A DNA stretch of 64,000 bases from an uncultured Thermoleophilia bacterium (lineage in GTDB: Bacteria > Actinomycetota > Thermoleophilia > Miltoncostaeales > Miltoncostaeaceae), in NCBI GenBank assembly GCA_963777565.1, contig CAVZQZ010000007.1, positions 55,209 through 119,208 on the forward strand. Reading direction: 5' to 3'. Below are positions 14,348 through 38,215 of this stretch, piece after piece. The notes beneath the pieces were generated by a model. The model ran no database searches and was not told the DNA's origin. It saw nothing but the letters and a program-made list of their open reading frames with translations. The stretch's first letter is position 1. Each line of letters opens with the position of its first letter. The position numbers and the translations under genes are program-made.

Positions 14348-14351
<4 letters not shown>

Positions 14352-15238
14352 GCGAGCTGATCGCCAGGGCCGCCCGGCTCGGAGCTGAGGGAACGGCGTA
14401 TGCGCTGGCGACGGTCGTCGGCGTGCGCCGTCCCGCGTCGGCCCGCACCGGCAACCAGGCGATCGTCACGGCGGACGGCGCGATCGACGGATGGGTGGGC
14501 GGGGCCTGCTCGGAGCCGGTCGTGATCCGCGAGGCGCTCCGGTCGCTCGCCGACGGGCAGCCGCGCCTGGTGAAGATCTGCCCAGACGGATCGGAGCTGG
14601 CCGCGGACGACCCGGACGTGGTCGTCGCGGTGAGTTCCTGCGCATCGGAGGGAACCGTGGAGGTGTTCATTCAGCCGCACCTTCCGAGCCCGCTGCTGCG
14701 GGTCGTCGGCGACAGCCCAGCGGGGCGAACGCTCGCGGGGCTCGCCCGGACCATCGGGTGGCGCGTCACCTCGGACGCCGGTGACGCCGACGCGGTGGTG
14801 GTGGCCACGATGGGGCGCGGCGACGAGGACGCGCTCGCAGAGGCGATCGGATCCGGCGCCGGGTACGTCGGGTTGGTCGCCAGCACCCGGAGGGCCGGCG
14901 TCGTGCGCGCGGCGCTCCGCGACCGCGGCATCGCCGACGACCGCCTGGCGATGGTGCGGAGTCCCGCGGGGCTCGACCTGGGTCCGTGCACGCAGGAGGA
15001 GATCGCGGTGGCGATCCTCGCTGAGCTGGTCGCGTGGAGCCATGGTCGCGGCGGCTCGCCGAGCCAGCTGCTCGAGGCGGTCGATCCGGTGTGCGGGATG
15101 ACGGTCAGCGTGGACGGCAACGACGTCACCTATGCGCACAACGGGACGACGTATTACTTCTGCTGCCCCGGCTGCCGCGGCATGTTCGCAGCGGATCCCG
15201 AGAAGGCCCTCAACACGGTGCGGCCAACCTTCGGCTGA
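14348..15238 (+). CDS. XdhC/CoxF-CoxI family maturation factor fused to a C-terminal YHS/TRASH metal-binding domain
   Basis: This is the 3' part of ORF 12002..15238; its GTGA overlaps the coxL stop. It has an XdhC_CoxI N-domain, a Rossmann-like middle (LLRVVGDSPAGRTLA) and the tail DPVCGMTVSVDGNDVTYAHNGTTYYFCCPGCRGMFAADP. Confidence 0.8.
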
Positions 15239-15595
15239 GCGGCGTCGGGACGGGGCCCGACTCGTCCAGCCAGTAGGGAGCGACACCTGCGCTCCGGTGG
15301 ACCTCCCAGAGGCCGCCGGGGCGCTGCTCCCGGGCGGTGATCCTCCCGGAGTCGGGGTATCCGCAGATGTCGACGGCGGAGAGGAGACTCGCCCCGGGCT
15401 TCCCAGAGGCTCATCTCGAGTCGCTGTGACCCGTCCGCCCCCGCGAGGTCCGGTGCCGGCCACCTCAGCCCGCCGGCGGCATCTGACCCCGGCCGGCCTG
15501 GCCGGCGAGCTCCTGCGAGCATGCGTTCGGCATCATCGCTCCGCAGATCGGCGTGGTCGAAGGGAAAGCGTCGTCGGCTCGGCGGCCGCGGCCGC

Positions 15596-15626
15596 TTGAC
15601 TTGAAGTCAACTTCAAGTTGTACCGT
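15596..15626 (+). promoter_or_regulatory. MerR-type promoter: TTGACT, 19-nt spacer, TACCGT, with a perfect 9-2-9 inverted repeat inside the spacer
   Basis: TTGACT lies at 15596-15601, the spacer at 15602-15620 (19 nt) and TACCGT at 15621-15626. The arms are ACTTGAAGT (15599-15607) and ACTTCAAGT (15610-15618). The element ends 30 nt upstream of the 15656 ORF. Confidence 0.35.
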
Positions 15627-15655
15627 CGGGTGAACATCAGACTGCGTCGAGAGGA

Positions 15656-16009
15656 GTGACCATGAACGGGGTGGTGGGCGCCGGCGATCGGATCGCCGAA
15701 GAGGTCACATCGTGGCCCGGTGTGACCGCGGGACCGGGTTCGCGCGGGGAGTTCGCCTTCAGGGTCGGTCGGCGCGAGATCGGCCATCTGCATGGCGACC
15801 GCACGGCCCATTTCGGGTTCCCGAAGGACGTGTGGGCCCGCCTCTATGTACAGGGCCGAATCGACTACCACCCGGTATTCCCGGGGCAACCGGGCTTCGC
15901 GGCCCGCCCCATCGCCGACGACACCGACGTGCGCGACGTGATCGAGCTGCTGCGCCTGAACTACGACCGCGTCGTCGCCCGTCACGGCCTCCCGGCAGCC
16001 GCCGCCTGA
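15656..16009 (+). CDS. Small conserved protein of unknown function (resembles the family annotated as 'luciferase family protein'/DUF5519; recall-based)
   Basis: 117-aa ORF with good codon bias (WPGVTAGPGSRGEFAFRVGRREIGHLHGDRTAHFGFPKDVWARL). Confidence 0.55.
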   Translation: MTMNGVVGAGDRIAEEVTSWPGVTAGPGSRGEFAFRVGRREIGHLHGDRTAHFGFPKDVWARLYVQGRIDYHPVFPGQPGFAARPIADDTDVRDVIELLRLNYDRVVARHGLPAAAA

Positions 16010-16011
16010 GC

Positions 16012-16128
16012 GGTGGTCCCGGGCATTAACAACTCCCTTTCGGCCCCTTCTGGGTGCCGGGCATTAACAATGTAACCCCCGGCACCAGGCCTCCCCGGAA
16101 TCACGATTGTTAATGCCCGGGACCACCG
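16012..16128. repeat. REP/BIME-like cluster of a 19-nt core GGTSCCGGGCATTAACAAT: two direct copies 38 bp apart plus one inverted copy
   Basis: The copies lie at 16015-16032, 16053-16071 and, inverted, 16106-16124. The outer 21-nt arms GGTGGTCCCGGGCATTAACAA (16012-16032) and TTGTTAATGCCCGGGACCACC (16108-16128) are perfect inverted repeats. The same core flanks the transposase at 37.1-38.2 kb. Confidence 0.65.
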
Positions 16129-16211
16129 ATCAGGTGCAACGGGCAGTCACGTGGGGCGAGGCGGCGCCGTCCACGCGTCCTCGTCGGCCGGGACGTCGTA
16201 GCATTCGTGCC

Positions 16212-16466
16212 GTGCCCAGCGAGATCTCGGTCACGGTACGCCTGTTCGCGTCGCTTCGCGAAGCGGCCGGCACCGGGCGGCTGCAGGTCGCGGTGCCGCA
16301 CGCCACGCCCGTCGGCGCCCTCTGGTCCCACCTGCCGCCTGAGGTCGCCGCCGGCGACCCGCCCGCCGCGCTCCGCTACGCCCTCAACCACGAATGGACC
16401 CTGCCCGGCGCTGCACTGCGCGACGGCGACGAGGTCGCCCTCGTCCTGCCAGTGAGCGGCGGATGA
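16212..16466 (+). CDS. moaD: Molybdopterin synthase sulfur-carrier subunit MoaD
   Basis: 84 aa ending ...DGDEVALVLPVSGG. The C-terminal GG and ThiS/MoaD fold pattern fit, and moaE follows with an ATGA overlap. The GTG start was chosen downstream of the REP cluster. Confidence 0.7.
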   Translation: MPSEISVTVRLFASLREAAGTGRLQVAVPHATPVGALWSHLPPEVAAGDPPAALRYALNHEWTLPGAALRDGDEVALVLPVSGG

Positions 16467-16897
16467 CCGGCCTCTCCCCGGACCCCCTCGACATCGCCCA
16501 AGTCGCCGCGGCCGTCGGCGACCCCGAGCACGGCGGCGTCGCCAGCTTCCTCGGCTGCATCAGGCGCGAAGCCGGCATCCGCGAGGTTGTCGCGATCGAG
16601 TACGACGCTTACGAGGAGCTCACCCTCCGAGAGCTCGCCGCCGTCGCCGACGAGGCCCGCGCGCGATTCGGCGCGACCGTCGCGGCCGTCCACCGCACCG
16701 GGCGCGTCGCGGTCGGCGAGCCCAGCGTCGCCGTCGCCTGCTCCGCCCCGCACCGACCCGCGGCGTTCGCCGCGTGCCGGTACGTGATCGACGAGCTCAA
16801 GGTCCGGGCCCCGATCTGGAAGCGCATGATCTACGCCGACGGCGCCGCCGAATGGGTCGACGGCCGGGACCCGGTGCGCGGTGAGCGACCCGCGTAG
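16463..16897 (+). CDS. moaE: Molybdopterin synthase catalytic subunit MoaE
   Basis: Reads MTGLSPDPLDIAQVAAAV...GGVASFLGCIR...PIWKRMIY, typical of MoaE. Confidence 0.85.
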   Translation: MTGLSPDPLDIAQVAAAVGDPEHGGVASFLGCIRREAGIREVVAIEYDAYEELTLRELAAVADEARARFGATVAAVHRTGRVAVGEPSVAVACSAPHRPAAFAACRYVIDELKVRAPIWKRMIYADGAAEWVDGRDPVRGERPA

Positions 16898-18191
16898 GGC
16901 GCTCCCCTCCGTCGACGCCGCCCTCACCGATCCGGGCGTCGCCGAGCTGCTCGAGCACCACGCTCGCGGCCACGTCGTCGATGCGGTCCGGGCCGCGCTC
17001 GCCGACCGCCGCGAGCGGCGCACGGGGGCGGCGGGGCTCGCCGCCGACGTCCGTGCTGCCCTGCGCCCCTCGATGCGCCGCGCGATCAACGCGACGGGTG
17101 TGGTGCTGCACACGAACCTCGGCCGTGCTCCCCTCGCCGACGACGCCATCGCCGCCGCCACCGCGGCCGCCGGGTACGGGACGCTCGAATGGAACGCCGA
17201 CACCGGTGAGCGGGGTTCCCGCCATGACCACGTCGTGGCCCATCTGCAGGCGCTCACCGGCGCCGAGGCGGCCTGTGTCGCGAACACGAACGCAGCGGGC
17301 GTGCTGCTGGCGCTCGTCGCGCTCGCATCGGGCAAGGAGGTCATCGTCTCGCGCGGCCAGCTCGTTGAGATCGGCGGCGGCTTCCGGGTTCCCGAGGTGC
17401 TGCGGGCAAGCGGCTGCCGGCTCGTGGAGGTCGGCACCACGAACAAGACCCGCGTCGCCGACTACGAGCAGGCGATCGGCAGCGAGACGGCGGCGATCCT
17501 GCGCGTGCACCCGTCGAACTTCCGGGTGGTCGGGTTCACCGAGGAGGCGGGCCTCACCGAGCTCGTGGAGCTCGGCCGCCTCCGCGGGCTCGCCGTGATC
17601 GACGACCTCGGCAGCGGTGCCCTCGTCGACGACCCGGCGTACCGTGACGAGCCCGACGTCCGCAGCAGCGTCGGCGCCGGGGTCGACGTTGCCTGCTTCA
17701 GTGGCGACAAGCTGCTCGGCGGTCCCCAAGCCGGGATCCTCGTCGGCACGCACGACGCGATCCGGCGCTGCAAGGCGCACCCACTCATGCGCGCGCTGCG
17801 CCCCGACAAGCTCACGGTCGCCGCCCTCGAGGCCACGCTCGCCCTGCACCGCGACCCGGCGACAGCCCGGGAGCGAGTCCCGACACTCCGGATGCTGTCG
17901 ACGCCGCCCGACGAGCTTCGCCGCCGCGCCGAGGCACTCGCCGCCGAGGTCGGCGGCGAGGTGGTGCAGACCGTCGGCAGGGTCGGCGGCGGATCGCTGC
18001 CGCTCGCCGAGATCGCGAGCTACGCCGTCGCACTGCCCGCACCGGACGGCGAGGACGCGATGGCGTCGGCGCTCCGAGCACTCGACCCGCCGGTCGTCGC
18101 GCGGGTCGCCGATGGGCAGGTCCTGCTCGACGTGTTGACCGTGAGCCCCGGCGAGCTCGCCGAACTCGGCCTGATGCTCGGTCGCCGGTGA
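16881..18191 (+). CDS. selA: L-seryl-tRNA(Sec) selenium transferase SelA
   Basis: 436 aa. N-terminus RALPSVDAAL...; a PLP-enzyme body (FSGDKLLGGPQAGILVG carries the Lys). Directly linked to selB. Confidence 0.85.
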   Translation: MSDPRRALPSVDAALTDPGVAELLEHHARGHVVDAVRAALADRRERRTGAAGLAADVRAALRPSMRRAINATGVVLHTNLGRAPLADDAIAAATAAAGYGTLEWNADTGERGSRHDHVVAHLQALTGAEAACVANTNAAGVLLALVALASGKEVIVSRGQLVEIGGGFRVPEVLRASGCRLVEVGTTNKTRVADYEQAIGSETAAILRVHPSNFRVVGFTEEAGLTELVELGRLRGLAVIDDLGSGALVDDPAYRDEPDVRSSVGAGVDVACFSGDKLLGGPQAGILVGTHDAIRRCKAHPLMRALRPDKLTVAALEATLALHRDPATARERVPTLRMLSTPPDELRRRAEALAAEVGGEVVQTVGRVGGGSLPLAEIASYAVALPAPDGEDAMASALRALDPPVVARVADGQVLLDVLTVSPGELAELGLMLGRR

Positions 18192-18511
18192 CGGACGTCG
18201 CTCACCTCCAGGCGATCGCGGACGGCCCCGATGCCGATGCCGCCGCCGTCGCGCTCGTCGAGCTCGGGCTGGCGCACCGCACGGCCGGTCGGCCGGATCT
18301 CGCCGAGGCCGCCTTCATCCGGGTGATCGACACCGGCCACGAGGGGCAGGCCCCCCGCGCCGCGTTCGAGCTGGCGCAGCTCTACGAGGAACACGGCGAC
18401 TCGGAAGGTGCGCGGGACGCGTACCGGTATGTGCTGGAGGCGGGCGGTCACGGCCTCGTGGGGCCCGCGGCATGCGGCCTGCGCCGGCTGAGCGGAGCAC
18501 CCAGGGAGTGA
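18188..18511 (+). CDS. Small TPR-like helical protein inserted between selA and selB
   Basis: 107 aa, with GTGA overlaps at both ends (selA stop and selB start). Helical repeat-like sequence: LAHRTAGRPDLAEAAFIRVI...AQLYEEHGDSEGARDAYRYVLE. Confidence 0.5.
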   Translation: MTDVAHLQAIADGPDADAAAVALVELGLAHRTAGRPDLAEAAFIRVIDTGHEGQAPRAAFELAQLYEEHGDSEGARDAYRYVLEAGGHGLVGPAACGLRRLSGAPRE

Positions 18512-20325
18512 AGGACGTGCCGATCGTGCTGGGCACCGCTGGGCACGTCGACCACGGCAAGACGGCGCTGGTGCTCGCGCTCACAGGACGCGACACCGAC
18601 CGGCTGCCAGAGGAGAAGGCGCGGGGGATCTCAATCGCCCTCGGGTTCGCGCCGTTCGAGCTGTCGTCCGGGCGGCGGGTGAGTCTGGTGGACGTGCCGG
18701 GCCACGAACGGTTCGTGCGGCACATGGTCGCGGGCGCAAGCGGGGTGGACGGGTACCTGCTCTGCGTCGCCGCCGACGACGGCGTGATGCCCCAGACGGT
18801 GGAGCACATCGCCGTCCTGCGCCTGCTGGGCGTGGACGACGGCGTCGTGGCCGTGACGAAATGCGACCTGGCTGACCCCGCCCGAGCAATCGCCGAGGTG
18901 CGCGAGCTGGTCGGCGCGTCGCCGGAGGTCGTCACAGTGTCAGCGGTCACAGGAGCGGGGCTTCCCGAGTTGCGCGGCGCCCTCGGAAGGCTCGCCGAGC
19001 GGACCCGGCGGCGGACGGGCGGGGGGCGACCGCGCCTCTTCGTCGATCGCGCGTTCTCGGTGGCCGGTGCCGGAACGGTGGTCACGGGCACGCTCTGGGG
19101 CGACCCGATGGACGCCGGAGACCGCGTCGAGATCGTCCCCGGAGGTCGCACCGGCCGCGTGCGGGGACTGCAGGTGCACGACGAGACGGTCGCCCGCGCC
19201 GACGGCGGACGCGTGGCGCTGAACCTCGGCGGGATCGACCGCGACCATGCGCCACGTGGATCGTGCGTCGTCCGGACGGCGGACGGCTGGCGGCCCACCA
19301 CCATGCTGGACGTCGCCGTCGACTGGCTCGCCGAGGCCGGCACGTCGCTTCGCACCCGCCGCCGGCTGCAGGCCTTCCTCGGGACGACGGAGGTATCCGC
19401 CACGTGCGTGCTGCTCGAGGGCGACGAGCTCCCGCCGGGCGGGCGCGGGTACGCCCAGCTCCGTCTCGACGCGGAGGTTGCCGCAGACACGGGCGACCGT
19501 CTCGTGCTGCGCTCCGCCGAGCGACGCACCGTCGGCGGAGCGACGGTAATCGACCCGGCGCCCGCCCGGCATGGACGGGGGTCGGGGGCGGCCGCCCGGC
19601 TGGCGCTGCTGGAGCGGGCCGACCCGGACGCCCTGCTGCGGCTTCGGATCGTCGAGGCGGGCGCCGCGGGCGCCTTCGTCGAGGAGTCCGAGCGGGCTGC
19701 GGTCGAGGACGCCGGGGGAGTGCTCCTGCGGGACGACCTCGCCGTCGACCGGCCGATCGTCGACGAGGCGAGTTTCCGGCTGCTGGCAGCGCTGCAGCCC
19801 GGCGGGCTGGCGCTCGCCGACGCGCACCGCGCCTGCGGCCTCGGCGTCGGTGCCGCTGAATCGCTGGTCGACGCCCTGGCCCGAGAGGGAAGAATCGTCC
19901 GCGACGGGGCCCGCGTCGCGATTGCGGGCGCCGTCGCGCGGAGCGCGCTCGTCGATGAGGTGGGCAGGCTCCTGCAGGAGGCCGGCCTGCGTCCCCCCGG
20001 CCCCGCGGAGCTCGGCGAGCGCCTCGGCGTCGACCAGGCGCACCTCGACGTCGCGGTGCGGGAGCTGCGCAACGAGGGCGCGGTCGTCGGCGCCGGCGGC
20101 CTTTGGTTCGACGCCGCCGCCGCGGCAACCGCAAGACAGCAGGCCGCCGAGGTGCTCGCGAACGGCCCGATGTCCATTGGCGAGCTCCGTGATCTGTGGG
20201 GCGTGGGGCGCCGGCACGCGCTCGCGCTCGCGGCGCACCTCGACGCCAGCGGCCTCACCCGCCGCGTCGGCGACGAGCGCGTGCTGCGTCGCGGAGCAAT
20301 AACATCAGGCGATGGCAAGCACTGA
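18508..20325 (+). CDS. selB: Selenocysteine-specific elongation factor SelB
   Basis: G-domain VLGTAGHVDHGKTALVLALTG and DVPGHERF. The long C-terminal winged-helix region ends LDASGLTRRVGDERVLR. The GTG start at 18508 was chosen by its overlap with the upstream stop. Confidence 0.85.
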   Translation: MKDVPIVLGTAGHVDHGKTALVLALTGRDTDRLPEEKARGISIALGFAPFELSSGRRVSLVDVPGHERFVRHMVAGASGVDGYLLCVAADDGVMPQTVEHIAVLRLLGVDDGVVAVTKCDLADPARAIAEVRELVGASPEVVTVSAVTGAGLPELRGALGRLAERTRRRTGGGRPRLFVDRAFSVAGAGTVVTGTLWGDPMDAGDRVEIVPGGRTGRVRGLQVHDETVARADGGRVALNLGGIDRDHAPRGSCVVRTADGWRPTTMLDVAVDWLAEAGTSLRTRRRLQAFLGTTEVSATCVLLEGDELPPGGRGYAQLRLDAEVAADTGDRLVLRSAERRTVGGATVIDPAPARHGRGSGAAARLALLERADPDALLRLRIVEAGAAGAFVEESERAAVEDAGGVLLRDDLAVDRPIVDEASFRLLAALQPGGLALADAHRACGLGVGAAESLVDALAREGRIVRDGARVAIAGAVARSALVDEVGRLLQEAGLRPPGPAELGERLGVDQAHLDVAVRELRNEGAVVGAGGLWFDAAAAATARQQAAEVLANGPMSIGELRDLWGVGRRHALALAAHLDASGLTRRVGDERVLRRGAITSGDGKH

Positions 20326-20715: not shown

Positions 20716-21819
20716 GTGGAGCACAACTTCACATCGACCGGCTACACCGTCGGGATCGAGGAGGAGCTCATGATCCTCGACGCCGGCACGCTCGATCTGG
20801 TCAGCGCCATCGAGGAGCTGCTCGGGCCGTCCGCCCACGGCGACGTCAAGCCGGAGCTCATGGAGTCGGTGCTCGAAATCTCGACCGACCCGTGCAGGAC
20901 CATCGCGCAGGCCGGCGACCAGCTGCGGGAGCTGCGCGCGTCGGTTGCCTCGCGCGCCGCGCCGCTCGGGTATGCGATCGGCGCCGCCGGCACCCACCCC
21001 TTCGCGCGGTGGGAGGACCAGCGCATCGTGGCGCGACCGCGGTACCGGGATCTCATCAGCGCGCTGAGATTCGTCGCCCGGCAGGAGCTGATCTTCGGGA
21101 TGCACGTCCACGTCGGGCTCGACGACCCTGAGAAGGCGATCTGCGTGGCGAACGGAATGCGGCTGCACGTGCCGGCCCTGCTCGCGCTCTCCGCGAATTC
21201 GCCCTTCTGGCGGGGCGACGCGACGGGACTCGCGTCGACGCGCATGCCGATCTTCCGGGCGTTCCCCCGGGTGGGGATCCCCCCGTACTACGAGGACTGG
21301 GACGACTACCAGCGGCGCATCGCGTTCCAGGTCGAGTCGGGCGTGATCGAGGACTACACGTACCTCTGGTACGACGTGCGGCCCCATCCGGTCCTTGGGA
21401 CGGTGGAGATCCGGGCGATGGACGCCCAGACCCGTCTCGAGCACACCCTCGGCATCGGCGCGCTCGTGCAGTCGCTCGTCCGGAAGCTCGCGACCGACTG
21501 GGAGTCCGGATCGATGCCGGACCAGTTTCCGTACGAGATGCTCGACGAGAACCGCTGGCTCGCCGCGCGGCATGGACTGCGCGGCGAGATCGTCGACCTG
21601 CCCTCGACCGAGCGGATCGCGACGAAAGCCCTCATCAAGCGCCTGCTCGAGGAGTTGGCCGATCACGCACGTGACCTCGGGTGCGCCGACGAGCTCGCGG
21701 CAGTCACCGATCTGCTCGACCACGGCAACGGCGCGCAGCGCCAGGTGGTCGTCTACGAAGCCAACCGGGACCTGCGCGAGCTGATGGCGGAGATCGTGGC
21801 GGCGACGAGCGAGGTCTGA
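20716..21819 (+). CDS. Carboxylate-amine ligase, glutamate-cysteine ligase family 2 (YbdK-like)
   Basis: Reads VEHNFTSTGYTVGIEEELMILD...ELIFGMHVHVGL...SANSPFWRGDATGLASTR, the GCS2 signature. GTG start within ORF 20404..21819. Confidence 0.85.
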   Translation: MEHNFTSTGYTVGIEEELMILDAGTLDLVSAIEELLGPSAHGDVKPELMESVLEISTDPCRTIAQAGDQLRELRASVASRAAPLGYAIGAAGTHPFARWEDQRIVARPRYRDLISALRFVARQELIFGMHVHVGLDDPEKAICVANGMRLHVPALLALSANSPFWRGDATGLASTRMPIFRAFPRVGIPPYYEDWDDYQRRIAFQVESGVIEDYTYLWYDVRPHPVLGTVEIRAMDAQTRLEHTLGIGALVQSLVRKLATDWESGSMPDQFPYEMLDENRWLAARHGLRGEIVDLPSTERIATKALIKRLLEELADHARDLGCADELAAVTDLLDHGNGAQRQVVVYEANRDLRELMAEIVAATSEV

Positions 21820-21937
21820 CCCGGCGATCAGCCTGATGCTCAGGCGATCCGTGAATCGTCACGACGTGCCGGGGCGCAGGCGACCGTCCGACGTTGAGCC
21901 GGCCGAGGCGGAATGCTGCTCGCCCGCGCCGATCAGT

Positions 21938-22300
21938 GCCCCCCGAGTAGGGCTTGCCGTCGGCGGCGGGCGGGGTCGCCCGGCCGATGAAGCCGACGAG
22001 GGCGATGAGCGTGACCACATACGGGAGGGCCTTCAGCAGGTCCGGGTTGATGCCGACGCCGCCGAGGCGGTCGGCGAGCGCAAGCGAGAGCCCGAACGCT
22101 GCGCTCCGAGAACATCCCGCCGAGTGTCGCCAGCGTCAGAGGCGTTCCCGCGCGGAGCATGGCCGCGAACAAGCCGGCATCACGACGTCCTCGAGGGTGG
22201 CCACATCCGCACGCGTGGCCTGGAGGGCCAGTCGTCCGCAGAGCACGGCCGCGGTGATGGCCCACCACCCCTGGGCCCGCAGTTTGCGCGGTGGGCGGGC
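21938..22300 (-). pseudogene. Remnant of a BPD_transp_2-type (Bmp/nucleoside-sugar) ABC permease, with frameshifts and a large internal deletion
   Basis: Three minus-strand frames carry consecutive permease pieces: ...WWAITAAVLCGRLALQATRADVATLEDVV, then AGLFAAMLRAGTPLTLATLGGMFSERS, then GLSLALADRLGGVGINPDLLKALPYVVTLIALVGFIGRATPPAADGKPYSGG. The N-terminal and C-terminal signatures abut with about 250 codons missing between them. Confidence 0.5.
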
Positions 22301-22310
22301 CTTCGCCGGC

Positions 22311-22898
22311 TCAGATTCCGAGCGCGCGCTCGAGCCGGCGCCGGAAGCGCTCGGCCCCGAGCCGGCGCCACTCCACGAGGAAGCGCTCGTACAGCTCGTC
22401 GCGCTCCACGGTGCGCCTGGCGAGCAGGGCCTCGATGCCTGGGCGCTCCGACGCCGTGCCCGCCGCGTCGAGCTGCGCCCGGAACCGCTCGAACGCCTGC
22501 TCGCGCTGCACGCGGCCGCGGCGGCCGACCGTGCCGGTCTCACGGAGGAGGGCCCGAGCGGCAGCCGCATCCCGCTCCGCCAGGCGCTCGAGGTGGTCCT
22601 GCAGCATGGGAACCTGGACGTCCCGGTCGTGAATGTCGCCAAGCAGGTCCTGCATCACCTTGACCTCGTCGATGAAGGGCTCGAGGTCGGCCGTGAATCC
22701 GACCTGGAAGATCTCGAGGAGGTACCGCAGGCGCTTGAACGCGATGCGCATGTCGTGGAGCTCGCGCACCCGACCGGGGTGGGTCACGTGAGGTGCGTAC
22801 GACCAGACCTCGTCGATCCGCACGGCCAGGATCCGCCGCGCATTCGGCCGCAGTCGCCGGCTCGGGTCGAGTCCGTGGATGCGGGCGGGCTTCGCCAT
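22311..22898 (-). CDS. CHAD domain protein (short, 195 aa)
   Basis: Starts MAKPARIHGLDP. CHAD motifs are VRELHDMRIAFKRLRYLLE and LLGDIHDRDV. Begins 2 nt after the upstream CHAD ORF. Confidence 0.8.
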   Translation of the reverse strand: MAKPARIHGLDPSRRLRPNARRILAVRIDEVWSYAPHVTHPGRVRELHDMRIAFKRLRYLLEIFQVGFTADLEPFIDEVKVMQDLLGDIHDRDVQVPMLQDHLERLAERDAAAARALLRETGTVGRRGRVQREQAFERFRAQLDAAGTASERPGIEALLARRTVERDELYERFLVEWRRLGAERFRRRLERALGI

Positions 22899-22900
22899 CG

Positions 22901-23416
22901 CTACCCGCTCGGGGGCTTCGTCTCGAGCCGCTCGACGTCCACTCCCGTCGCACGCCCGACCCACCGCTCGAACCGCGGGCCGAATTCATCTTGTTCGATG
23001 CGCGCGAGCAGGCCGGCGATGTGGACCGCCTCCTCGGCGCGACGCTCGCGGTACTCGAGGATCAGCGCCTCGACCCCGACTCGCTCGGCGGGGGTCATGT
23101 CGTCGAGAAGCGCCATGAGGCCTTCCATCGCGACATCGAGATCCCGCGCCGCGCCGAGCGTGTCGGTGACCTCCTTGACCACCTTGAGTCGCTTGCGGAA
23201 CGACGACGCCGGGAACGCCGCCGCGAACGCGTCCATCGCGGCCCGCAGTCGCCGTGACGAGACGCGCATGGCGTGGAGCTCCTCGATGTCTTCGCCGGCG
23301 ATGGTCCCGGGCCCGTAGCTCATCATCTCGCGCCAGCGCGTGACGATGATGCGCCCCGCGGCGTCGGCGAAGTGGGCATTCTGATGGAGTCCTGGCACAT
23401 CCCAGGCCTTCGCCAT
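22901..23416 (-). CDS. CHAD domain protein (short, 171 aa), paralogue of the downstream ORF
   Basis: Starts MAKAWDVPGLHQN. CHAD motifs are IEELHAMRVSSRRLRAAMD and TLGAARDLDV. Start chosen inside ORF 22901..23749. Confidence 0.8.
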   Translation of the reverse strand: MAKAWDVPGLHQNAHFADAAGRIIVTRWREMMSYGPGTIAGEDIEELHAMRVSSRRLRAAMDAFAAAFPASSFRKRLKVVKEVTDTLGAARDLDVAMEGLMALLDDMTPAERVGVEALILEYRERRAEEAVHIAGLLARIEQDEFGPRFERWVGRATGVDVERLETKPPSG

Positions 23417-23730
23417 CAGATGGTGTGCCCGATCAGAACGGCGCCGCGCACCGCGTCGCGGAGATCGGTGGGGCGCGCCATCGACGACCAGTCGACGTCG
23501 AGCTCCATGGCCAGGTCGACGGCGGCCCGGATGATGTCCTCCGGGTGGAGGCCGCCGCCTTTCGCGGCCGCGCCGCGGAGCCAGCGCACCTGGCGCTTCG
23601 ACAGGCTCACCTGCGCCCGCACCGTCGCGTCGCGCCGCCGCGTGCCGATCGCCTCGGCGTCGAGCTGCCGGAACGTCGGCCTCGGGCCGGGTGCGCTGTC
23701 CAGCATCACCCGGTAGGTCACCCGGCTCAT
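23416..23730 (-). CDS. Small protein, possible ribbon-helix-helix DNA-binding fold
   Basis: 104 aa, with an ATGA overlap on the ATPase stop and a TGATG junction with the CHAD start. The segment RAQVSLSKRQVRWLRGAAAKGGGLHPEDIIRAAVDLAMEL has a strand-helix-helix pattern. Fold assignment is inference. Confidence 0.5.
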   Translation of the reverse strand: MSRVTYRVMLDSAPGPRPTFRQLDAEAIGTRRRDATVRAQVSLSKRQVRWLRGAAAKGGGLHPEDIIRAAVDLAMELDVDWSSMARPTDLRDAVRGAVLIGHTI

Positions 23731-24584
23731 TCCGCGCCCCCTGCCTCACGTTCGATGTCGCGATCCTCGGAGAGGTCGCGGATGAGATCCTCGCCGATCT
23801 GCGTGTCGCCGCGCGCGTAGCCGACGAACAGCGCGTTCGCGCACAGCAGGTTCACGAGTCGCGGGACGCCCTCCGTCTCCTGGTGCGCGGCGGTCTCCGC
23901 CCGGCTCGAGAACAGCCGACGCGTGGCGCCGGCGACGCGCGAGCGGTGCTGGATGTACGTCGACACCTCGTCGCGGTCCATGGTGCCAAGGTGGTAACGG
24001 ACGACGACCCGCTGTGCGACCTGCGGAAGCCGCCTGATGTGCGCGCCGAGCTCGGGCTGGCCGAGGAGCACCACCGGCACCGCGGGTCCGCCGCCGGAGT
24101 TCGTCAGCATGCGCAGCTCGTCGAGCGCGCGCGCGTCGAGTCGCTGCGCCTCGTCGACCACGACGACCGGCCGGCGCCCAGCCGCGACCTCGTCGGCCAG
24201 CCGGGCCCGCAGGCGCACCGCGAGGCGCCCGGCACCGCCGCCGCGCACCGGCGAATCGGCCGACGCCAGCAGCGCCGCGAGCAGTCCCGACGGCGTGCGG
24301 GGCGGGTTCGAGACGCCGACGACCGTGAAGCCGTCGGTCCCGAGCGTCTGCTCGAGCGCGCGCGCGAGCATGGTCTTTCCACACCCGACCTCGCCCGTGA
24401 TCGCGACGATCCCCCCGAGCTGGGTGAGGCCGAACAGCATCCGTGCGAGCCCCTCTTGATGGGCGTCTCTGGGGAACGCGAACCGCGGCTCGGGCTCGAG
24501 CTGGAACGGCGCTTCGACGAGCCCCCACCAATCGAGATAGGGGTGGCGCGACGTGCGGGGCGGGATTGCGCGCGCATCAAGCAT
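23727..24584 (-). CDS. ExeA/GspA-like AAA+ ATPase (AAA_22, COG3267-type)
   Basis: 285 aa. N-terminus YLDWWGLVEAPFQLEPEPRFAFPRDAHQEGLARMLFGL; Walker A TGEVGCGKTML; Walker B PVVVVDEAQRL. Confidence 0.8.
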   Translation of the reverse strand: MLDARAIPPRTSRHPYLDWWGLVEAPFQLEPEPRFAFPRDAHQEGLARMLFGLTQLGGIVAITGEVGCGKTMLARALEQTLGTDGFTVVGVSNPPRTPSGLLAALLASADSPVRGGGAGRLAVRLRARLADEVAAGRRPVVVVDEAQRLDARALDELRMLTNSGGGPAVPVVLLGQPELGAHIRRLPQVAQRVVVRYHLGTMDRDEVSTYIQHRSRVAGATRRLFSSRAETAAHQETEGVPRLVNLLCANALFVGYARGDTQIGEDLIRDLSEDRDIEREAGGAE

Positions 24585-24706
24585 TTCCGCAAACTAGCAG
24601 CGACTTCGGGCGGCAGTGATGTCAGTGCGGTGACAGCGACGACCCCGTTCGGATCCCCGCACGGGCGCCTCGTGGTAAGGTCATCGACTCGCCCGGGCGC
24701 CCGCGG

Positions 24707-25756
24707 ATGGACGCCGACAACGAACACAGAGGAAGCGACGCCCTGATCGACGATCGCCCTCCGAAGACGCTACGCAGGTCCCGTTTCGTCCGGCTCCTGG
24801 TCATCGCCGGTCTGGTCGTGCTCTCCATCCCGGCAGTTGCCGCCGCGGCGCAGGCGATCTCACGGCAGATGGAGTCGGTCCGCCGGCTCGAGGCCGAGAT
24901 CGCGGGGCTCGACTCGCGCTATGGCCAGGCCGCCGCCGCGTACGACTCCGCACATGCCCGCCTCACGGCGGTGAGGGGCCGGATCCGGGACAACACCGAT
25001 GCGCTCGCGCGCGCACGCGTCGAACTCGCCAAGGCGCAGGCGCAACTCGCATTCCGCGTATCGGCGATCTATCGTCAACCGCAGCCGTCGGGGCTCGAGG
25101 TCCTGTTGCGCTCCGGCAGCCTCTCCGAGGCCACGGCACGCATGGATCTGCTCGAACGGGTGCAGCGCCAGGACGGCGAGTTGGTGAAGAGCATCGCCGC
25201 CACTCAGGAGCGCATTCGCGCGGCACGCGTGCAGCTCATCGAAGACCAGAAGGTCGCGAAGCAGGAGTCGAAGGAGGCGAGGGTCCGCCTCGCCGAGGTG
25301 CGCTCCGTGCGCGCGGCGCGCCGGGGGGTGCTGCTCTCCGCACGCCGTCAGCTCGTGGTGCTGATCGCCGCCGAAGTCAGCCGGCAGGCCAACGCGCGTC
25401 GGCTCGCCGCGCTCCGCGCCGCGCAGGGCCGCGTGGCGCGGCGCACGGGCACGGGTGGGGGGGCGGCAGCCACACCGGTGGTGTCCGCCCCCGCTGCGCC
25501 CAGCGGCAGCGGCACCGGCACCGACGTCAGCTCCACGCTCGGGAAGATCGCGCTCTGCGAATCGGGCGGCAACCCGACCGCGGTGTCGCCGAGCGGCCTC
25601 TACCGCGGCAAGTACCAGTTCGATCCCCAGACGTGGCAGAAGCTCGGGGGCTCTGGGGGCGATCCCGCGGCAGCTCCGGAGGCCGAGCAGGACCGCATCG
25701 CCGGTATCCTCTACAGCCAGCGCGGCGCGGCCTCATGGCCCGTCTGCGGCCGCTGA
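24707..25756 (+). CDS. Rpf-like (resuscitation-promoting-factor type) transglycosylase with an N-terminal TM segment and a long coiled coil
   Basis: The C-terminal domain reads LGKIALCESGGNPTAVSPSGLYRGKYQFDPQTWQKLGG...WPVCG. The upstream part is heptad-rich (RLEAEIAGL...AKAQAQLA). Confidence 0.8.
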   Translation: MDADNEHRGSDALIDDRPPKTLRRSRFVRLLVIAGLVVLSIPAVAAAAQAISRQMESVRRLEAEIAGLDSRYGQAAAAYDSAHARLTAVRGRIRDNTDALARARVELAKAQAQLAFRVSAIYRQPQPSGLEVLLRSGSLSEATARMDLLERVQRQDGELVKSIAATQERIRAARVQLIEDQKVAKQESKEARVRLAEVRSVRAARRGVLLSARRQLVVLIAAEVSRQANARRLAALRAAQGRVARRTGTGGGAAATPVVSAPAAPSGSGTGTDVSSTLGKIALCESGGNPTAVSPSGLYRGKYQFDPQTWQKLGGSGGDPAAAPEAEQDRIAGILYSQRGAASWPVCGR

Positions 25757-29559: not shown

Positions 29560-29691
29560 CGGTGCTCCTCTCATCGAATCTCCCGTGATGCGCCCACGGT
29601 AGGGCTCGCCGTCGGCGCGATGGGTGACCGCCTGGTGGCAATGGTGTGAGCGGTTGGCTCCTCGGTCTCGTGCACCCGATGACCACAGTCG

Positions 29692-29730
29692 GTTCACATC
29701 CCCGCAACCAGAACGTCACTACCTGGGAAC
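29692..29730 (+). promoter_or_regulatory. Candidate PHO box: four hexamers with 11-nt phasing upstream of pstS2
   Basis: GTTCAC (29692), CGCAAC (29703), CGTCAC (29714) and GGGAAC (29725). The spacing is exactly 11 nt, and the array lies 100-140 nt upstream of the pstS2 start. It resembles actinobacterial PhoP direct-repeat units (GTTCACC-like). Confidence 0.3.
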
Positions 29731-29831: not shown

Positions 29832-30956
29832 GTGAAGCGTTCCGTTCGCAACACCATGACCGCGGCGATCGTCGGGGGCGCGTTGTTCGCCACCGCCGCC
29901 GCCGCGCTCGCCGAGACGAAGGGATCGGGTGCGACGTTCCCCCGCCTCGCCTATCAAACCTGGTGCCAGGAGAGCGGCGGCCTCTGCAGCTACACCGCAA
30001 AGGGATCGACGGGCGGCATCAACGACTTCATCAACGGCGTCGTCGACTTCGGTGCCTCCGACGCTCCCCTCACCGACTCGCAACGTGCCGACCTCGCTTC
30101 GAAGCGTGGCGGCGCCGGAGTCCTCTACTTCCCGACGCTGCTCGGTGCGGTGACCATCCCGACCAACATTGCGGGTCAGCCGGGCGCTTTGCAGCTCCGG
30201 GCGAAGACCCTCGGCCGCATCTTCGCGGGCGAGATCACCAAGTGGAACGATCCGGCAATCGTCGGTGACAACGCGACCAACCCGCGCACGAAGGGCTTCA
30301 AGTTCCCCAACCAGGCGATCATCGTCTGCGTCCGCCAGGACGGATCAGGCACGAGCTTCGCGTTCAGCTCGTTCCTCTCGAAGGCGAGCGCGCCCTTCAA
30401 GGCGAAGGTCGGCGTAAGTCAGTTACCGGCGTGGACCGCACCTCAGATCGTCCGCGGCCCGGGCAACGTTGGCGTCGCAAGCTGTGTGACGCAGAACTCG
30501 GGCGCCATTGGCTACGTCGACCTCGGTGACGCTCGCAACGCCGGGCTCGGCAAGAACCTCGCCGCGGTCGGCAAGAGCGAGGTCATCCACGTCAAGCGGA
30601 AGATCAACGGCAGGGTGCGCACCGTCGCGATCCGGCGTCTCACCTACAAGCCGCCGTCGGTGCCCGCGATCGTCCGTGCCGGCAACGTCACGGCGAAGCA
30701 GATCCCGTCGAACCTGCTCCTCGACCTGTCGCTCAGCCCGGCGGTGGGCGCCTACCCAATCGTCACCACGACCTGGATCCTGGCGTACACCGACTTCAAC
30801 CAGGCGGGCAAGGGCGGGAGCCTGGCGGGTGTCAAGTCGGTGCTGAACTACTTCTACAGCACGGGCGCACAGGCACGGCTCACGCAGCTCGGCTTCGCCC
30901 CGCTCCCGGCGACGATCCTCACCGCCGCCAAGAAGCAGATGACCAAGCTCAAGTAG
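29832..30956 (+). CDS. pstS: Second phosphate-binding protein PstS (lipoprotein/secreted)
   Basis: 374 aa with a signal-like N-terminus. Reads GSGATFPRLAYQTW...KGSTGGINDFINGVVDFGASDAPL and GKITKWNDPAIVGDN, paralogous to the 5' pstS. Confidence 0.85.
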   Translation: MKRSVRNTMTAAIVGGALFATAAAALAETKGSGATFPRLAYQTWCQESGGLCSYTAKGSTGGINDFINGVVDFGASDAPLTDSQRADLASKRGGAGVLYFPTLLGAVTIPTNIAGQPGALQLRAKTLGRIFAGEITKWNDPAIVGDNATNPRTKGFKFPNQAIIVCVRQDGSGTSFAFSSFLSKASAPFKAKVGVSQLPAWTAPQIVRGPGNVGVASCVTQNSGAIGYVDLGDARNAGLGKNLAAVGKSEVIHVKRKINGRVRTVAIRRLTYKPPSVPAIVRAGNVTAKQIPSNLLLDLSLSPAVGAYPIVTTTWILAYTDFNQAGKGGSLAGVKSVLNYFYSTGAQARLTQLGFAPLPATILTAAKKQMTKLK

Positions 30957-31002
30957 GGCGGCCCATCTCACCAACCGTCACACCACCCGGAGCGTCGTCG
31001 CC

Positions 31003-32988
31003 ATGACGGCGCTCCGGCCCGCGCCGGCCGAGGGTCCCGGACACCCGGTACCCCCGCCGGCGCGCTCACTCCGGCGGAGCCGGTCGGGCATGTTCGCCGA
31101 CCGGCTCTACGTCGTTCTTGTCGCGCTCGCGGCGCTCGCCGGGTTCGTGGCGATCGCCTACCTGCTCATGCGGACCTTCGGGGAGACCCAGGAGACCTGG
31201 CAGGAGGTGGGCTTCTGGGATTTCGTCACCGGCACGGAGTGGGCCCCGGCGGCCGGCAAGTACGGTGCGCTCCCGGCGATCTACGGAACACTCGTGACGT
31301 CGGCAATCGCCATGGTCATCGCGGTCCCGATCGCCGTCGCGGTCGCGATCGCGACGACGGTCATGTTGCCGTCCAGATTGCGGGGGCCCGTTGCGGGGAT
31401 CATCGACCTGCTCGCCGCAATCCCCTCGGTCGTCTACGGGCTGTGGGGATTTCTCGTGCTGGTCCCTCGGACGAAGCCGGGCCTCGAGTGGATCGCCGAC
31501 CACAACATGGGGATCGGCGCCCTGGAGGGGCCGGTGCTCGGGGGCTCGCTCATCCTCGCCGGCCTCGTGCTGTCGGTGATGGTCCTGCCCATCATCACCG
31601 CGGTGGTGCGCGAAGTGCTGGCGACGGTCCCGGTCGAGCAGCGAGAAGCCGCGCTCGCGCTCGGGGCGACGCGCTGGGAGATGATCCGCGGCGCGATGCT
31701 CCCGTGGGCCCGGTCCGGGATCGTCGGCGCCTCGGCGCTGGGCCTCGGGCGCGCGGTCGGGGAGACCGTGGCGGTGGCCCTCGTGCTCGGCAGCCAGCCA
31801 AGGCTGTTCGAGTCGTTGCTGGGATCGGGGCAGACCCTCGCCGCCACCATCGCGTTCGAGTACAACGGCGCTGTCAGCTCGCTCCACACCTCGGCGCTGG
31901 TCGCCATGGCGGTCATCGTGTTCGTCGTCGCGTTCGCGATCAACCTCCTCGCGCGGTCGCTTGTGGGCCGCTCGGGAGGCGGCGGAGGGCGGATCCGGCG
32001 GGGGGCACGGCATATGGGAGGCGCCGTGGCAATCCTGATGCGAAGGGTCACGGACAAGCTTCGCCCGGCGCGGCCGGTGTTGCCCGGCTCGCCCTGGGTA
32101 CCCGCCGTACCACGGCCGGCGCTGCGTCCGGTGAGTCGGTTCCGACGTATCCGTTCGCGGGCGGTCGAGCTCGCGATCATGGCCTCGGTCCCCATTGCGT
32201 TCATTCCGCTCGGGCTCGTGATCGGCTACTGCCTCACCAAGGGCGCAGGTGCGCTCTCGCTCGACTTCTTCACGAGCGACGGCGAGCCCGATGTCGTGGG
32301 GAACGGGATCAAGCACGCGCTGGTCGGCACCATCATCCTCATCGGGGTCGCGACGGTGGTCGCCGTCCCCCTCGGGGTGCTCACGGCGCTGTTCATCCGG
32401 GAGGCCGCATCCCGAGGTCCGCTCATGCGGCGTATCGGCGGGCTCCTCGGCGCGTACGTCGACGTGCTGCTCGGCGTACCGTCCGTCGTCGCCGGCATCA
32501 CGATCTCGATCGTCGTGGTCGCCGCCATGGGCACGTTCTCAGCCCTCGCCGGAGGCCTCGCGCTCGCCTTCATCATGTACCCGATCGTCGTGCGCTCGGC
32601 GGACGAGATCCTGCGTCTCGTGCCGCAGGCTCACGTGGAGGCGGCGCTGGCGCTCGGCTCCCCGCGGTGGCGCACCACGTGGAGCGTGGTGCTCCCCGCT
32701 GCGGCGCCGGGCCTGCTGACCGGGGTGATGATCGCGATCGCCCGGGTGAGTGGCGAGACCGCGCCGCTCCTGTTCACCGCGGGCGGGGCGCAGTTCTTCT
32801 CCTCCAGCCTCCTCGAGCCCATTACCGCCCTGCCCGTGTACATCTTCAACGGAACGATCAACTCGACGGTGCCCGAGGCACAGTCGCACGCGTGGGGCGC
32901 GGCGCTTGTGCTCGTCGGGCTCGTCCTGCTCCTCAACCTGGTCGCCCGGCTGATCGCGCGATTCACGCAACCCCTGGAGGCACGATGA
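31003..32988 (+). CDS. Fused phosphate ABC permease PstC-PstA (single 661-aa ORF)
   Basis: The N-half is PstC-like ([21 protein letters not shown]) and the C-half PstA-like ([20 protein letters not shown]). An Arg-rich linker of about 60 aa joins them with no stop between. Confidence 0.8.
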
Positions 32989-33866
32989 ACGACCCCGCCG
33001 GCTCGACCGTCGATGCCGCCACCGATACCGGCCTCGCCCGGCTGGCGACGAGCCGGACCGACCGCCCGGTGCGGGCCGTCACCCACGGGCCGCCGGTCAT
33101 GGAGACCGACAACCTCTCGGTGTGGTTCGGCGCCCACCAAGTGCTCGACGGCATCGACATTGCGTTCCCCGAGCGATCGGTGACCGCGATGATCGGGCCG
33201 TCGGGGTGCGGCAAGTCGACACTCATCCGGTGTCTCAACCGGATGCACGAGCTTGTCCCGGGCGCACGCGTGCGCGGCGGGGTGCGGCTCCGCGGGAAGG
33301 AGCTGTACTCGGCGGACGCCGACCCCGTCGCCATCCGGCGGTCGGTCGGCATGGTGTTCCAGCGTCCCAACCCCTTCCCGACGAAGTCGATCGCCGAGAA
33401 CGTGCTCTCCGGTCCGCGCTTCAACCGCATCAAGCTCTCACGCGGGCGCCGCGACGAGCTGGTCGAGCGGGCGCTGGAAGGCGCCGGCCTGTGGAGCGAG
33501 GTCAAGAACCGCCTCGGTGCGCCGGCCGGCGGGTTGTCGGGAGGCCAGCAGCAGCGCCTGTGCATCGCGCGGGCCCTCGCGGTCGAGCCGGACGTCCTGC
33601 TCATGGACGAGCCGTGCTCCGCGCTGGATCCGCAGTCGACCTACCGCATCGAGGACCTCATCGACGAGCTCAAGCTCCGGCTTACGATCGTGATCGTGAC
33701 GCACAACATGCAGCAGGCCGCGCGAGTCAGCGACTTCACGGCCTTCGTCACGATCGAGAACGAAGGCGAGCCCGGGCGCCTCGTCGAGTGCGCGCCCACG
33801 CGCCAGCTCTTCACCAGCCCGCAGCACGAGCGCACCGAGGCGTATGTGACCGGCCGGTTCGGCTGA
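32985..33866 (+). CDS. pstB: Phosphate import ATP-binding protein PstB (second copy)
   Basis: ATGA overlap with the pstCA stop. Reads [34 protein letters not shown] and the C-terminus YVTGRFG. Confidence 0.9.
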
Positions 33867-33923
33867 GCGGACGCTCGAGGAATCGGGGCTGACCTCGCGG
33901 GCGGCCTCGCGTCCCGGTCGGGG

Positions 33924-34232
33924 TTGCGGATAGCATCGAACGCTGTGGAATGGCTCACGAGGGGATGGGACCAGGGACACAAAGTCGCGGTGGGGGTCGG
34001 GATCGCCGTCGGTGTCGCCCTGGCCGCGCTCGGCATGTCGGGACTCGCCGAGCTCGGAGCCGTCTCGGTGGCGCTCATGATGCGCTGGGCCCTGTGGCAG
34101 ATCCCGCCCCCTGGCCGCTCGAAGGCGCCTGGGTCGCCGGCCGACTCGGGCTCGCGGCTGATGCAGCTGGCCGTGGTCGTGCTGCTGGTGACGCTGGTCA
34201 TCGAGATCGTGATGTCGCCGGTCACCACCTAG
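33924..34232 (+). CDS. Small membrane protein (hypothetical)
   Basis: 102-aa ORF with high GC3 and 2-3 hydrophobic helices (VAVGVGIAVGVALAALGMSGL and LMQLAVVVLLVTLVIEIVM). Start uncertain. Confidence 0.4.
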   Translation: MRIASNAVEWLTRGWDQGHKVAVGVGIAVGVALAALGMSGLAELGAVSVALMMRWALWQIPPPGRSKAPGSPADSGSRLMQLAVVVLLVTLVIEIVMSPVTT

Positions 34233-34277
34233 CGGTTCCCCCCGTGGCGCTGCGCGCAGGTCTTTACACTCAAGCCC

Positions 34278-34712
34278 ATGGCACGCTTCCATGCGGAGAT
34301 CCGCTCACCGCTCTCCCCTGACGAGGCGTTCGCGCGAATGGCCGCGTTCGACCGGGTGCCCGAATGGGATCCGGCCACGAGCGCATCGACGCGCGTGGGT
34401 GAGGCCACCGGATTGGGCGCCGAATACGACGTGACGACCAGGTTCGGCGGCCGGACGATGGTGGTTCGCTACCGGACGACCGCCTACGAGCCGGGGCGGC
34501 GATTCGTGGTCGAGGCGGCGCTGCCGAACGGCGTCGGGCTGCGTGACGAAATCACCGTCGCGCCCGACGGCGCCGGATCCGTCGTGACCTACGACGCGCG
34601 CATCGTACCGAAGGGGCTCTGGCGTCTGGCCGACCCGATCTTCCATCTCATCTTCACACGGCTCGGCGCGCGAGCCGTTCCCGAGATCCGCAGGTTCCTG
34701 GGGAACACCTAG
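34278..34712 (+). CDS. SRPBCC (polyketide cyclase/START-like) family protein
   Basis: 144 aa. Reads MARFHAEIRSPLSPDEAFARMAAFDRVPEWDP...RFVVEAALPNGVGLRDEITV. Confidence 0.75.
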   Translation: MARFHAEIRSPLSPDEAFARMAAFDRVPEWDPATSASTRVGEATGLGAEYDVTTRFGGRTMVVRYRTTAYEPGRRFVVEAALPNGVGLRDEITVAPDGAGSVVTYDARIVPKGLWRLADPIFHLIFTRLGARAVPEIRRFLGNT

Positions 34713-36591: not shown

Positions 36592-36791
36592 CAGGGCGGT
36601 CCGGCGGACTCCGTGCATCCAACCCGGGTCTCTGATGCTAGGGGCCGGGTTGGCGCACCGCAACCGGCCGATGACGGCGGCGAACGGCGTACGCCGCGCG
36701 TCCCGATCCCCGGTTGGCACACGAAGGTCGAGAGTGCCAAACCGGTGTGCGATAATCGCGGCGGGAATCGACGACCGACGAGGGTGACTGC

Positions 36792-37112: not shown

Positions 37113-37245
37113 GTCCCGGGCGTTCCACAGGCCGCCCATCCCACTCCGATGGTCCCGGGCATTAACAGTCGGGAACTCCTTGCTCGGTGGTCCCGGGCGT
37201 TAACAATCGCTACTCGCTGGTTGGGTGGTGCCGGGGCTTCACAAT
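37112..37245 (+). repeat. Left REP array: four direct units of the GGTSCCGGGCRTTAACAAT core with 38-39 bp phasing
   Basis: The units start at 37112 (degenerate, GGTCCCGGGCGTTCCACAG), 37151 (GGTCCCGGGCATTAACAGT), 37189 (GGTCCCGGGCGTTAACAAT) and 37227 (GGTGCCGGGGCTTCACAAT). Confidence 0.65.
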
Positions 37246-38179: not shown

Positions 38180-38215
38180 ATCGATCGGGCGGCCGGCGAA
38201 TTCAGCCCCGGGGGG

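Follow-up and report, generated by a model that had tools for sequence, protein, structure and literature searches.

What does an ATPase of the ExeA/GspA family do in an operon with CHAD genes? CHAD domains are established polyphosphate (polyP) binders that decorate polyP granules. To our knowledge, the role of CHAD proteins at granules is unsettled, and we know of no energy-consuming factor tied to granule dynamics. The question is raised by a locus in a 64,000-nucleotide stretch of DNA from an uncultured Thermoleophilia bacterium (hereafter the window), in which four genes encode a AAA+ ATPase, a small orphan protein, and two short CHAD proteins. These genes form a vertically inherited, single-copy, syntenic operon (the cassette) that is specific to uncultured Thermoleophilia (Miltoncostaeales-like) and points to an undescribed ATP-dependent handling of polyP stores. 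The new element is an obligate two-gene CHAD locked to a AAA+ ATPase and an orphan partner; full-text literature searches found no paper tying CHAD to ExeA, GspA, AAA_22, or AAA+ ATPases and no paper on polyP in Thermoleophilia in this sense. Already known are CHAD genes in polyP operons: a passage of PMC6537752 that cites Iyer and Aravind (2002) places stand-alone CHAD genes in operons with polyP enzymes.

A CHAD domain encoded by two genes next to a soluble ATPase

The minus strand at 22311-24584 carries four intact open reading frames (ORFs) in the order ATPase, small ORF, CHAD-A, CHAD-B, as follows.

23727-24584, minus strand: ATPase (ORF1), 285 aa, AAA+ protein of the ExeA/GspA family, predicted to be cytoplasmic
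23416-23730, minus strand: small orphan protein (ORF2), 104 aa, basic (pI about 11); its start overlaps the ATPase stop
22901-23416, minus strand: CHAD-A (ORF3), 171 aa, begins MAKAW; one CHAD half (a single four-helix-bundle repeat)
22311-22898, minus strand: CHAD-B (ORF4), 195 aa, begins MAKPA; the paralogous second CHAD half

The ATPase gene and the small ORF share an ATGA overlap at 23730-23727, the small ORF and CHAD-A share a TGATG overlap at 23418-23414, and CHAD-A and CHAD-B are separated by a 2-nt gap at 22900-22899 (TAG-cg-ATG). Coordinates and junctions match exactly the initial annotation of the locus, which had described four packed minus-strand ORFs. As judged by a crude map, three ORFs have a third-position G+C fraction of 0.88-0.96, whereas CHAD-A fell under the 0.85 filter. 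Purifying selection acts on all four genes (ratio of nonsynonymous to synonymous substitution rates, dN/dS, 0.06-0.69). Despite indel-type frameshifts elsewhere in the assembly, the four genes are intact and full-length by comparison with 57 orthologous loci. No membrane segment was found in any of the four proteins.

Both ORF3 and ORF4 are CHAD proteins, with PF05235 scores of 72.6 bits for CHAD-A and 60.6 bits for CHAD-B against a gathering cut-off of 25.6 bits. They are paralogous over their full lengths (hhalign probability 99.3%, 31% identity, residues 1-162 versus 1-195), so that both the CHAD assignment and the paralogy proposed in the initial annotation hold. Each opens with a conserved MAK...GL N terminus and contains a single LHxMR motif, a count that holds in 50 of 50 orthologs. 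The ELHxMR...RLR motif and the LGxxxDxDV motif previously pointed out were each found once per ORF. Conservation in both ORFs of the H-x2-R-x3-R/K triad and the LGxxxDxDV helix is a likeness to known CHAD proteins, namely CtCHAD of Chlorobium tepidum (3E0S/6QV7), the phosin PptA of Ralstonia and Streptomyces, and Escherichia coli YgiF. The triad residues are H48, R51, and R55 in CHAD-A and H48, R51, and K55 in CHAD-B; they are invariant in both family alignments, and the H-x2-R-x3-[RK] pattern occurs exactly once per CHAD half in 50 of 50 orthologs.

In the solved structure of CtCHAD, pseudo-twofold symmetry relates two four-helix bundles, and polyP is bound across a basic pore; the contribution of H253, R256, and R260 (H-x2-R-x3-R) to polyP binding has been shown by mutation (PMC6537752). 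The CHAD-A profile matches CtCHAD 3e0s twice, at residues 21-156 and 198-312, and the CHAD-B profile likewise matches CtCHAD 6qv7 twice, at residues 11-97 and 200-277. Known CHAD domains have both bundles in one polypeptide, whereas here the two are separate, translationally coupled products of 171 and 195 aa, each with one repeat only. A complete CHAD domain could form here only as a dimer, and because each gene encodes one repeat, a CHAD-A/CHAD-B heterodimer would rebuild the canonical domain. A heterodimer had been suggested in the initial annotation; the one-repeat architecture that the idea requires is present, and the heterodimer itself is what we infer from it. CHAD-B differs further from known CHAD domains in an extra helical insertion, which amounts to ∼41 residues relative to CHAD-A, and neither protein has an attached CYTH/TTM domain. 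CHAD-B is basic (pI about 10.6), and its AlphaFold2 model is all-helical (mean predicted confidence, pLDDT, 89), in which residues 73-121 form a long helix and residues 129-146 a hairpin modeled with less confidence.

The ATPase matches AAA_22 with E = 6e-22. It contains the N-terminal YLDWWGLVEAPF motif, a Walker A motif (GEVGCGKT, residues 64-71), and a Walker B motif (VVVVDEAQ, with DEAQ at residues 144-147), the features from which an ExeA/GspA-type protein had originally been recognized. The ATPase is predicted to be catalytically active because the alignment shows essentially no variation in Walker A, DEAQ, or the sensor-1 region; Walker A and DEAQ are kept in 50 of 50 orthologs, and the dN/dS of the gene is 0.06-0.20. 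The chain ends at residue 285 with no match to a PG_binding domain and no hydrophobic segment (maximum 19-residue hydropathy 1.35), so that within the ExeA/GspA family the protein is soluble and consists of the ATPase part only. Public annotations of homologs of the cassette proteins read "general secretion pathway protein A," "ExeA family protein," "CHAD domain-containing protein," or "hypothetical protein."

The resemblance to Aeromonas ExeA/GspA comprises the AAA_22 domain, the N-terminal YLxxWGLxExPF motif, Walker A and B, and the location of the ATPase gene immediately upstream of a gene for a small partner. Nevertheless, the cassette ATPase lacks the transmembrane segment and the periplasmic peptidoglycan-binding domain (PF01471) of ExeA, its partner matches no family and is not an ExeB/GspB homolog, no secretin or type II secretion system genes are nearby, and the host is an actinobacterium of the Gram-positive type. 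The ATPase is only about 39% identical to a canonical ExeA-like protein with a PG_binding_1 domain (locus L072). The best curated model for the ATPase is TIGR03015 (XrtA/PEP-CTERM-associated ATPase), which aligns to 259 of the 285 residues with a score of 183.7 bits, well short of the NCBIfam cut-off of 324.5 bits. TIGR03015 proteins are likewise stand-alone soluble ATPases of about 270-280 aa.

The solved structures closest to the ATPase by sequence are MuB and TnsC (8XVB, E = 7e-5 to 8e-6; 7M99, E = 6e-3). MuB and TnsC are AAA+ proteins that polymerize along polyanionic DNA, and polymerization on a polyanion offers a mechanistic analogy for action on polyP. Sequence similarity to them is very weak, does not extend beyond the ATPase core, and is a mechanistic lead only; the cassette differs from the MuB and TnsC systems in having no transposase or other mobile-element genes. 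A mobile-element or TniB-like origin of the cassette was considered and rejected, there being no transposase in the cassette and the locus being single-copy and syntenic. PADLOC identified no defense system: the ATPase gave weak matches at the level of the P-loop (best TnsC, 6.5e-5) and the other three proteins gave none.

The small protein is basic (pI about 10-11), and residues W50, L51, W81, and R91 are invariant among 43 aligned sequences. It evolves more quickly than its neighbors, yet under purifying selection (dN/dS 0.27-0.69). When 1.84 billion representatives were searched exhaustively with a profile, only 47 clusters were returned, nearly all of 100-115 aa. The small ORF does have conserved homologs, whose absence would have counted against the initial annotation. 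The longer matches are read-through fusions with AAA_22 and CHAD, and the family is therefore confined to this cassette. No family was assigned by Pfam, by NCBIfam, by a scan of the 43 individual members, or by a profile search of the PDB.

Conservation of the cassette and its linkage to PPX and phosphoesterase genes

A profile scan with the ATPase alignment, using one genome per GTDB species, gave 80 loci. At 63 of these the ATPase has at least 53% identity, and all 63 are in Thermoleophilia/Miltoncostaeaceae-type metagenome-assembled genomes (MAGs); every carrier found is an uncultured MAG. The ATPase of one of them, an uncultured Thermoleophilia bacterium (L005), is 98% identical. The order ATPase, small ORF, CHAD-A, CHAD-B is kept in 62 of the 63 species genomes, and the sole exception stops at a contig edge. 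The initial annotation had asked whether the ATPase and the small ORF lie recurrently beside CHAD genes, and evidently they do. Six loci (L006, L011-L013, L015, and L016) are titled "uncultured Bifidobacteriaceae bacterium," yet have the Thermoleophilia-type cassette and synteny (ATPase identity 68-91%); these titles look mislabeled.

The remaining 17 loci are from other groups (Proteobacteria, Methylomirabilota, and others) and have ATPases of 36-43% identity. None of the 17 has the small ORF or a CHAD gene. Their ATPases either belong to loci of the exopolysaccharide type, with Wzz/GNVR, ParA-like kinase, MurJ, and epimerase genes, or are canonical ExeA proteins that contain PG_binding_1. 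The nearest ATPase relatives outside Thermoleophilia are found in loci like those of the TIGR03015 systems, but the cassette differs from such systems in its neighbors, which are CHAD, PPX, and phosphoesterase genes rather than those for Wzz, a tyrosine-kinase-like ATPase, and a flippase.

The gene junctions are also conserved. Of 57 loci, 51 retain the 4-nt overlap of the ATPase gene and the small ORF. CHAD-A and CHAD-B have a gap of -1 in 29 loci, and another 24 have gaps of 0 to +8 (53 of 57 in total), with layouts of -1, 0, +1, +2, +3, +6, and +8. CHAD is split in all 57 analyzable loci, which come from many independent assemblies, and the two halves are in different reading frames in 46 of the 57. 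The split is ancestral, as judged by its occurrence across assemblies with halves mostly in different frames. A single CHAD gene cut in two by an assembly indel, the caveat attached to the initial annotation, is ruled out by the conserved split, the frame differences, and the full-length paralogy of the halves. Apparent fusions were seen only in visibly frameshifted nanopore MAGs (L032, L066, and L073); in these and in L038, all of them Microflora Danica (MFD) MAGs, frameshifts make cassette genes look fused or truncated. A 367-aa "CHAD-A+B" ORF in L032 is a frameshift product that could pass for a natural fusion, and P0315 (577 aa, AAA_22 plus small ORF plus CHAD) is a similar read-through product.

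The cassette is found in two unrelated chromosomal contexts. In the clade of the window it is flanked on one side by an RPF/PcsB-like hydrolase gene, which is divergent, and on the other by GCS2, which is convergent. A larger Miltoncostaeaceae-type group has the cassette in divergent orientation to mraZ and the dcw cluster, as part of a longer operon. In that group a short PPX/GppA-family gene lies upstream of the ATPase gene in 28 of 55 loci. The interval from PPX stop to ATPase start is -10 to 0 in 22 of these 28 loci, and a 4-nt overlap is present in 18. The best model for the PPX gene is the exopolyphosphatase TIGR03706 (159 bits, below cut-off). Downstream, a YfcE-like Metallophos_2 phosphoesterase gene is present in 41 of 55 loci, 13-58 nt past CHAD-B in 37 of them. 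The cassette resembles the known polyP operons with CHAD genes, the polyP enzyme here being PPX in most lineages. Of all the contextual evidence, linkage to PPX and the phosphoesterase speaks most strongly for a role in polyP turnover, and with both genes in the operon of most lineages the polyP link is stronger than the initial annotation could see. Over the examined loci the flanking genes were def, the RPF-like gene, GCS2, mraZ, PPX, and Metallophos; no secretin, ExeB, type II secretion, or exopolysaccharide genes were among them, in agreement with the earlier remark that no type II secretion gene is nearby.

In some loci of the mraZ context a conserved ORF of ∼102 aa (L003 4728-5039; L004 5558-5866), absent from the window, sits between mraZ and the PPX or ATPase gene. 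It has an Arg-rich N terminus and two predicted hydrophobic helices, and may be an additional, membrane-anchored member of the operon.

The initial annotation drew its polyP context from other genes of the window, which are listed below.

94-1730: pstS/pstC
3507-4196: phoU
29832-32988: pstS/pstCA, the second pst set
39393-40283: ROK kinase gene
47560-49700, plus strand: ppk1; the PPK1 N-terminal motif begins at 47620

These genes are real, but they lie 6-25 kb away and are not conserved neighbors of the cassette. Gaps in the gene map at ∼1730-3500, 14351-16394, 32988-34709, and 35911-39393 may conceal more frameshifted genes, for example pstB.

Possible functions of the cassette

On balance we think it somewhat probable that the operon encodes a polyP-associated protein complex that is remodeled by ATP. 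In this scheme CHAD-A and CHAD-B would each fold as one four-helix bundle and pair into a heterodimer that rebuilds the two-bundle CHAD, with one basic His/Arg triad per subunit, and the heterodimer would bind polyP chains or granules. The cytoplasmic ATPase would act with its translationally coupled basic partner, the two spending ATP to assemble or remodel the polyP-CHAD complex. Such remodeling might gate the access of the co-transcribed exopolyphosphatase, leading to polyP mobilization or granule organization. The initial annotation had put forward an ATP-driven system for organizing or regulating polyP granules; the computational tests that could have overturned the proposal were run and none did so, and the role itself is one that we infer.

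Several observations weigh against a polyP complex of this kind. Characterized ExeA-family ATPases serve envelope assembly, not polyP. The operon in the window's own clade has neither PPX nor the phosphoesterase gene. The reading frame of ppk1 in the window changes at least eight times among the three forward frames, so that the gene is either a decayed pseudogene or affected by nanopore-type indel errors of the assembly. A Foldseek search with the CHAD-B model retrieved only generic long-helix proteins (BAR domains and the PI3K p85 coiled coil) and no CHAD entries, which makes the search uninformative for helical bundles. Finally, a correlation among the distance matrices of the four proteins (pairwise, r = 0.72-0.83) favors the complex, but is also expected for any genes sharing one genome.

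The genetic lock of the ATPase and its partner to CHAD, and mostly also to PPX and the phosphoesterase, suggests a defined polyP-turnover complex that could be reconstituted; every component is small and soluble and should lend itself to heterologous expression. The natural two-gene CHAD offers a direct test of the bundles as a dimeric clamp on polyP, and a polyP complex would give the poorly understood ExeA/GspA ATPase family a new role outside the envelope. A bolder form of the proposal is that the ATPase and the orphan partner are a motor or assembly factor, docked via the split-CHAD heterodimer, that polymerizes on or threads polyP and feeds granule polyP to PPX. We regard this form as rather unlikely; if true, it would be the first ATP-driven machine for the remodeling of polyP granules.

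The best placed of the alternatives, although still an unlikely one, is a polyP-sensing switch, in which the split CHAD would be the sensor, the ATPase a nucleotide-dependent switch, and the small protein a DNA-binding output of the ribbon-helix-helix (RHH) type acting on the operon or on phosphate genes. The small protein is basic, its pattern of predicted β-strand and helix is in register with Arc, CopG, and ParD, and one of the 43 members weakly matches ParD (E = 0.08). The ATPase also gives sub-threshold matches to STAND NTPase models, and loci of the window's clade have a conserved repeat element ∼50 nt ahead of the operon. However, hhalign comparison of the small protein with Arc, Mnt, CopG, ParD, and NikR (five RHH sequences) gave a probability of only 1.9%, albeit in the expected register, and RHH family models match no consistent set of the 43 members. 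The AlphaFold2 model is all-helical and of low confidence (pLDDT 64.8), and Foldseek against the PDB with this low-confidence model found nothing at E < 5. Neither a consistent family model nor a fold match supports the label "RHH-like" originally given to the small protein. Most loci of the other chromosomal context lack the upstream element, which is not enriched in the window, with 5 matches against 6 expected by chance. Moreover, ATGA coupling to the ATPase gene points to a stoichiometric partner and not to a free regulator.

It is distinctly improbable that two unrelated functions share one transcript. In that case the ATPase and small protein would act on DNA, the nucleoid, or the envelope, and the CHAD pair would be no more than a passive coat on polyP granules. 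The DNA filaments formed by MuB and TnsC would fit such an arrangement, as would the cell-wall and division genes that adjoin the cassette in both contexts (the RPF/PcsB-like hydrolase gene; mraZ and dcw). Against it, the order and overlaps of the four genes are kept in 62 genomes despite differing flanks, the small-protein family is found in no other gene context, and it is the ATPase gene, not a CHAD gene, that PPX overlaps.

A conventional assembly ATPase of the ExeA/GspA type or the PEP-CTERM/exopolysaccharide type, serving secretion or exopolysaccharide export, is very improbable. This assignment would account for TIGR03015 being the best model (184 bits), for the public name "general secretion pathway protein A," and for relatives of 36-43% identity that occur in Wzz, ParA-like kinase, and MurJ loci or with PG_binding_1. 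Yet the score is far under the TIGR03015 cut-off, the protein has neither a membrane segment nor a peptidoglycan-binding domain, the flanks hold no secretin, ExeB, or exopolysaccharide genes, and the CHAD genes and small ORF accompany none of the 17 outside relatives. Least credible of all is a single CHAD gene broken by assembly error or pseudogenization: frameshifts such as those in ppk1, and the mapping of ORF3 and ORF4 to the N-terminal (model positions 7-132) and C-terminal (141-227) halves of the Pfam model, would be in keeping with it, but the invariable split with its varying junctions and frames, the conserved MAK...GL starts, the full-length paralogy, the purifying selection on both ORFs, and the restriction of apparent fusions to visibly frameshifted MAGs all contradict it. 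The data effectively rule out both a secretion or exopolysaccharide role and an assembly artifact.

The upstream region and the surroundings of the cassette

The region between the ATPase gene and the divergent hydrolase gene was analyzed by aligning 11 upstream regions, all from the clade of the window.

24585-24706, minus strand: divergent intergenic region, candidate promoter

A TANNNT hexamer (TAGTTT at 24596-24591, minus strand) lies 6 nt ahead of the ATPase ATG, and TANNNT is found 6-7 nt ahead of the ATPase start codon in 10 of the 11 aligned regions, including that of the window. Such close spacing to the start codon, read in the light of established knowledge of actinobacterial promoters, suggests a leaderless transcript for the ATPase operon. 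A scan of 21700-24900 for consensus sigma-70 promoters and intrinsic terminators returned no sites.

The conserved element TGTCACCGCACTGACAT is located at 24635-24619 (minus strand), about 50 nt ahead of the ATPase start, and six relatives have it at a like position (about -50). Its form in the clade of the window is TGTCACC-N5-GTCAC/TGACA; some relatives show a direct repeat (GTCAC-N6-GTCAC), others an inverted one (GTCA-N6-TGAC). We considered the element as a Pho-box-like regulon motif and dropped this idea on the lack of enrichment and the absence from other-context loci described above. Elsewhere in the window, GTTCAC and GTCAC units ∼22-23 nt apart occur at 29690-29725 (plus strand), upstream of the second pstS (29832). 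These units recall the direct repeats of actinobacterial PHO boxes and are loosely like the element upstream of the cassette.

Downstream of the cassette, a 490-bp stretch (21820-22310) separates the CHAD-B stop from the convergent GCS2 gene and contains no convincing ORF and no terminator-like site; an Rfam scan of the whole window matched no RNA family and hence none in this gap. Farther downstream, just beyond the neighborhood of the cassette, the window encodes SelA/SelB selenocysteine machinery (16881-20325, plus strand), and an ORF for an IS200-like Y1 transposase (37210-38334, minus strand) lies near the ROK kinase gene.

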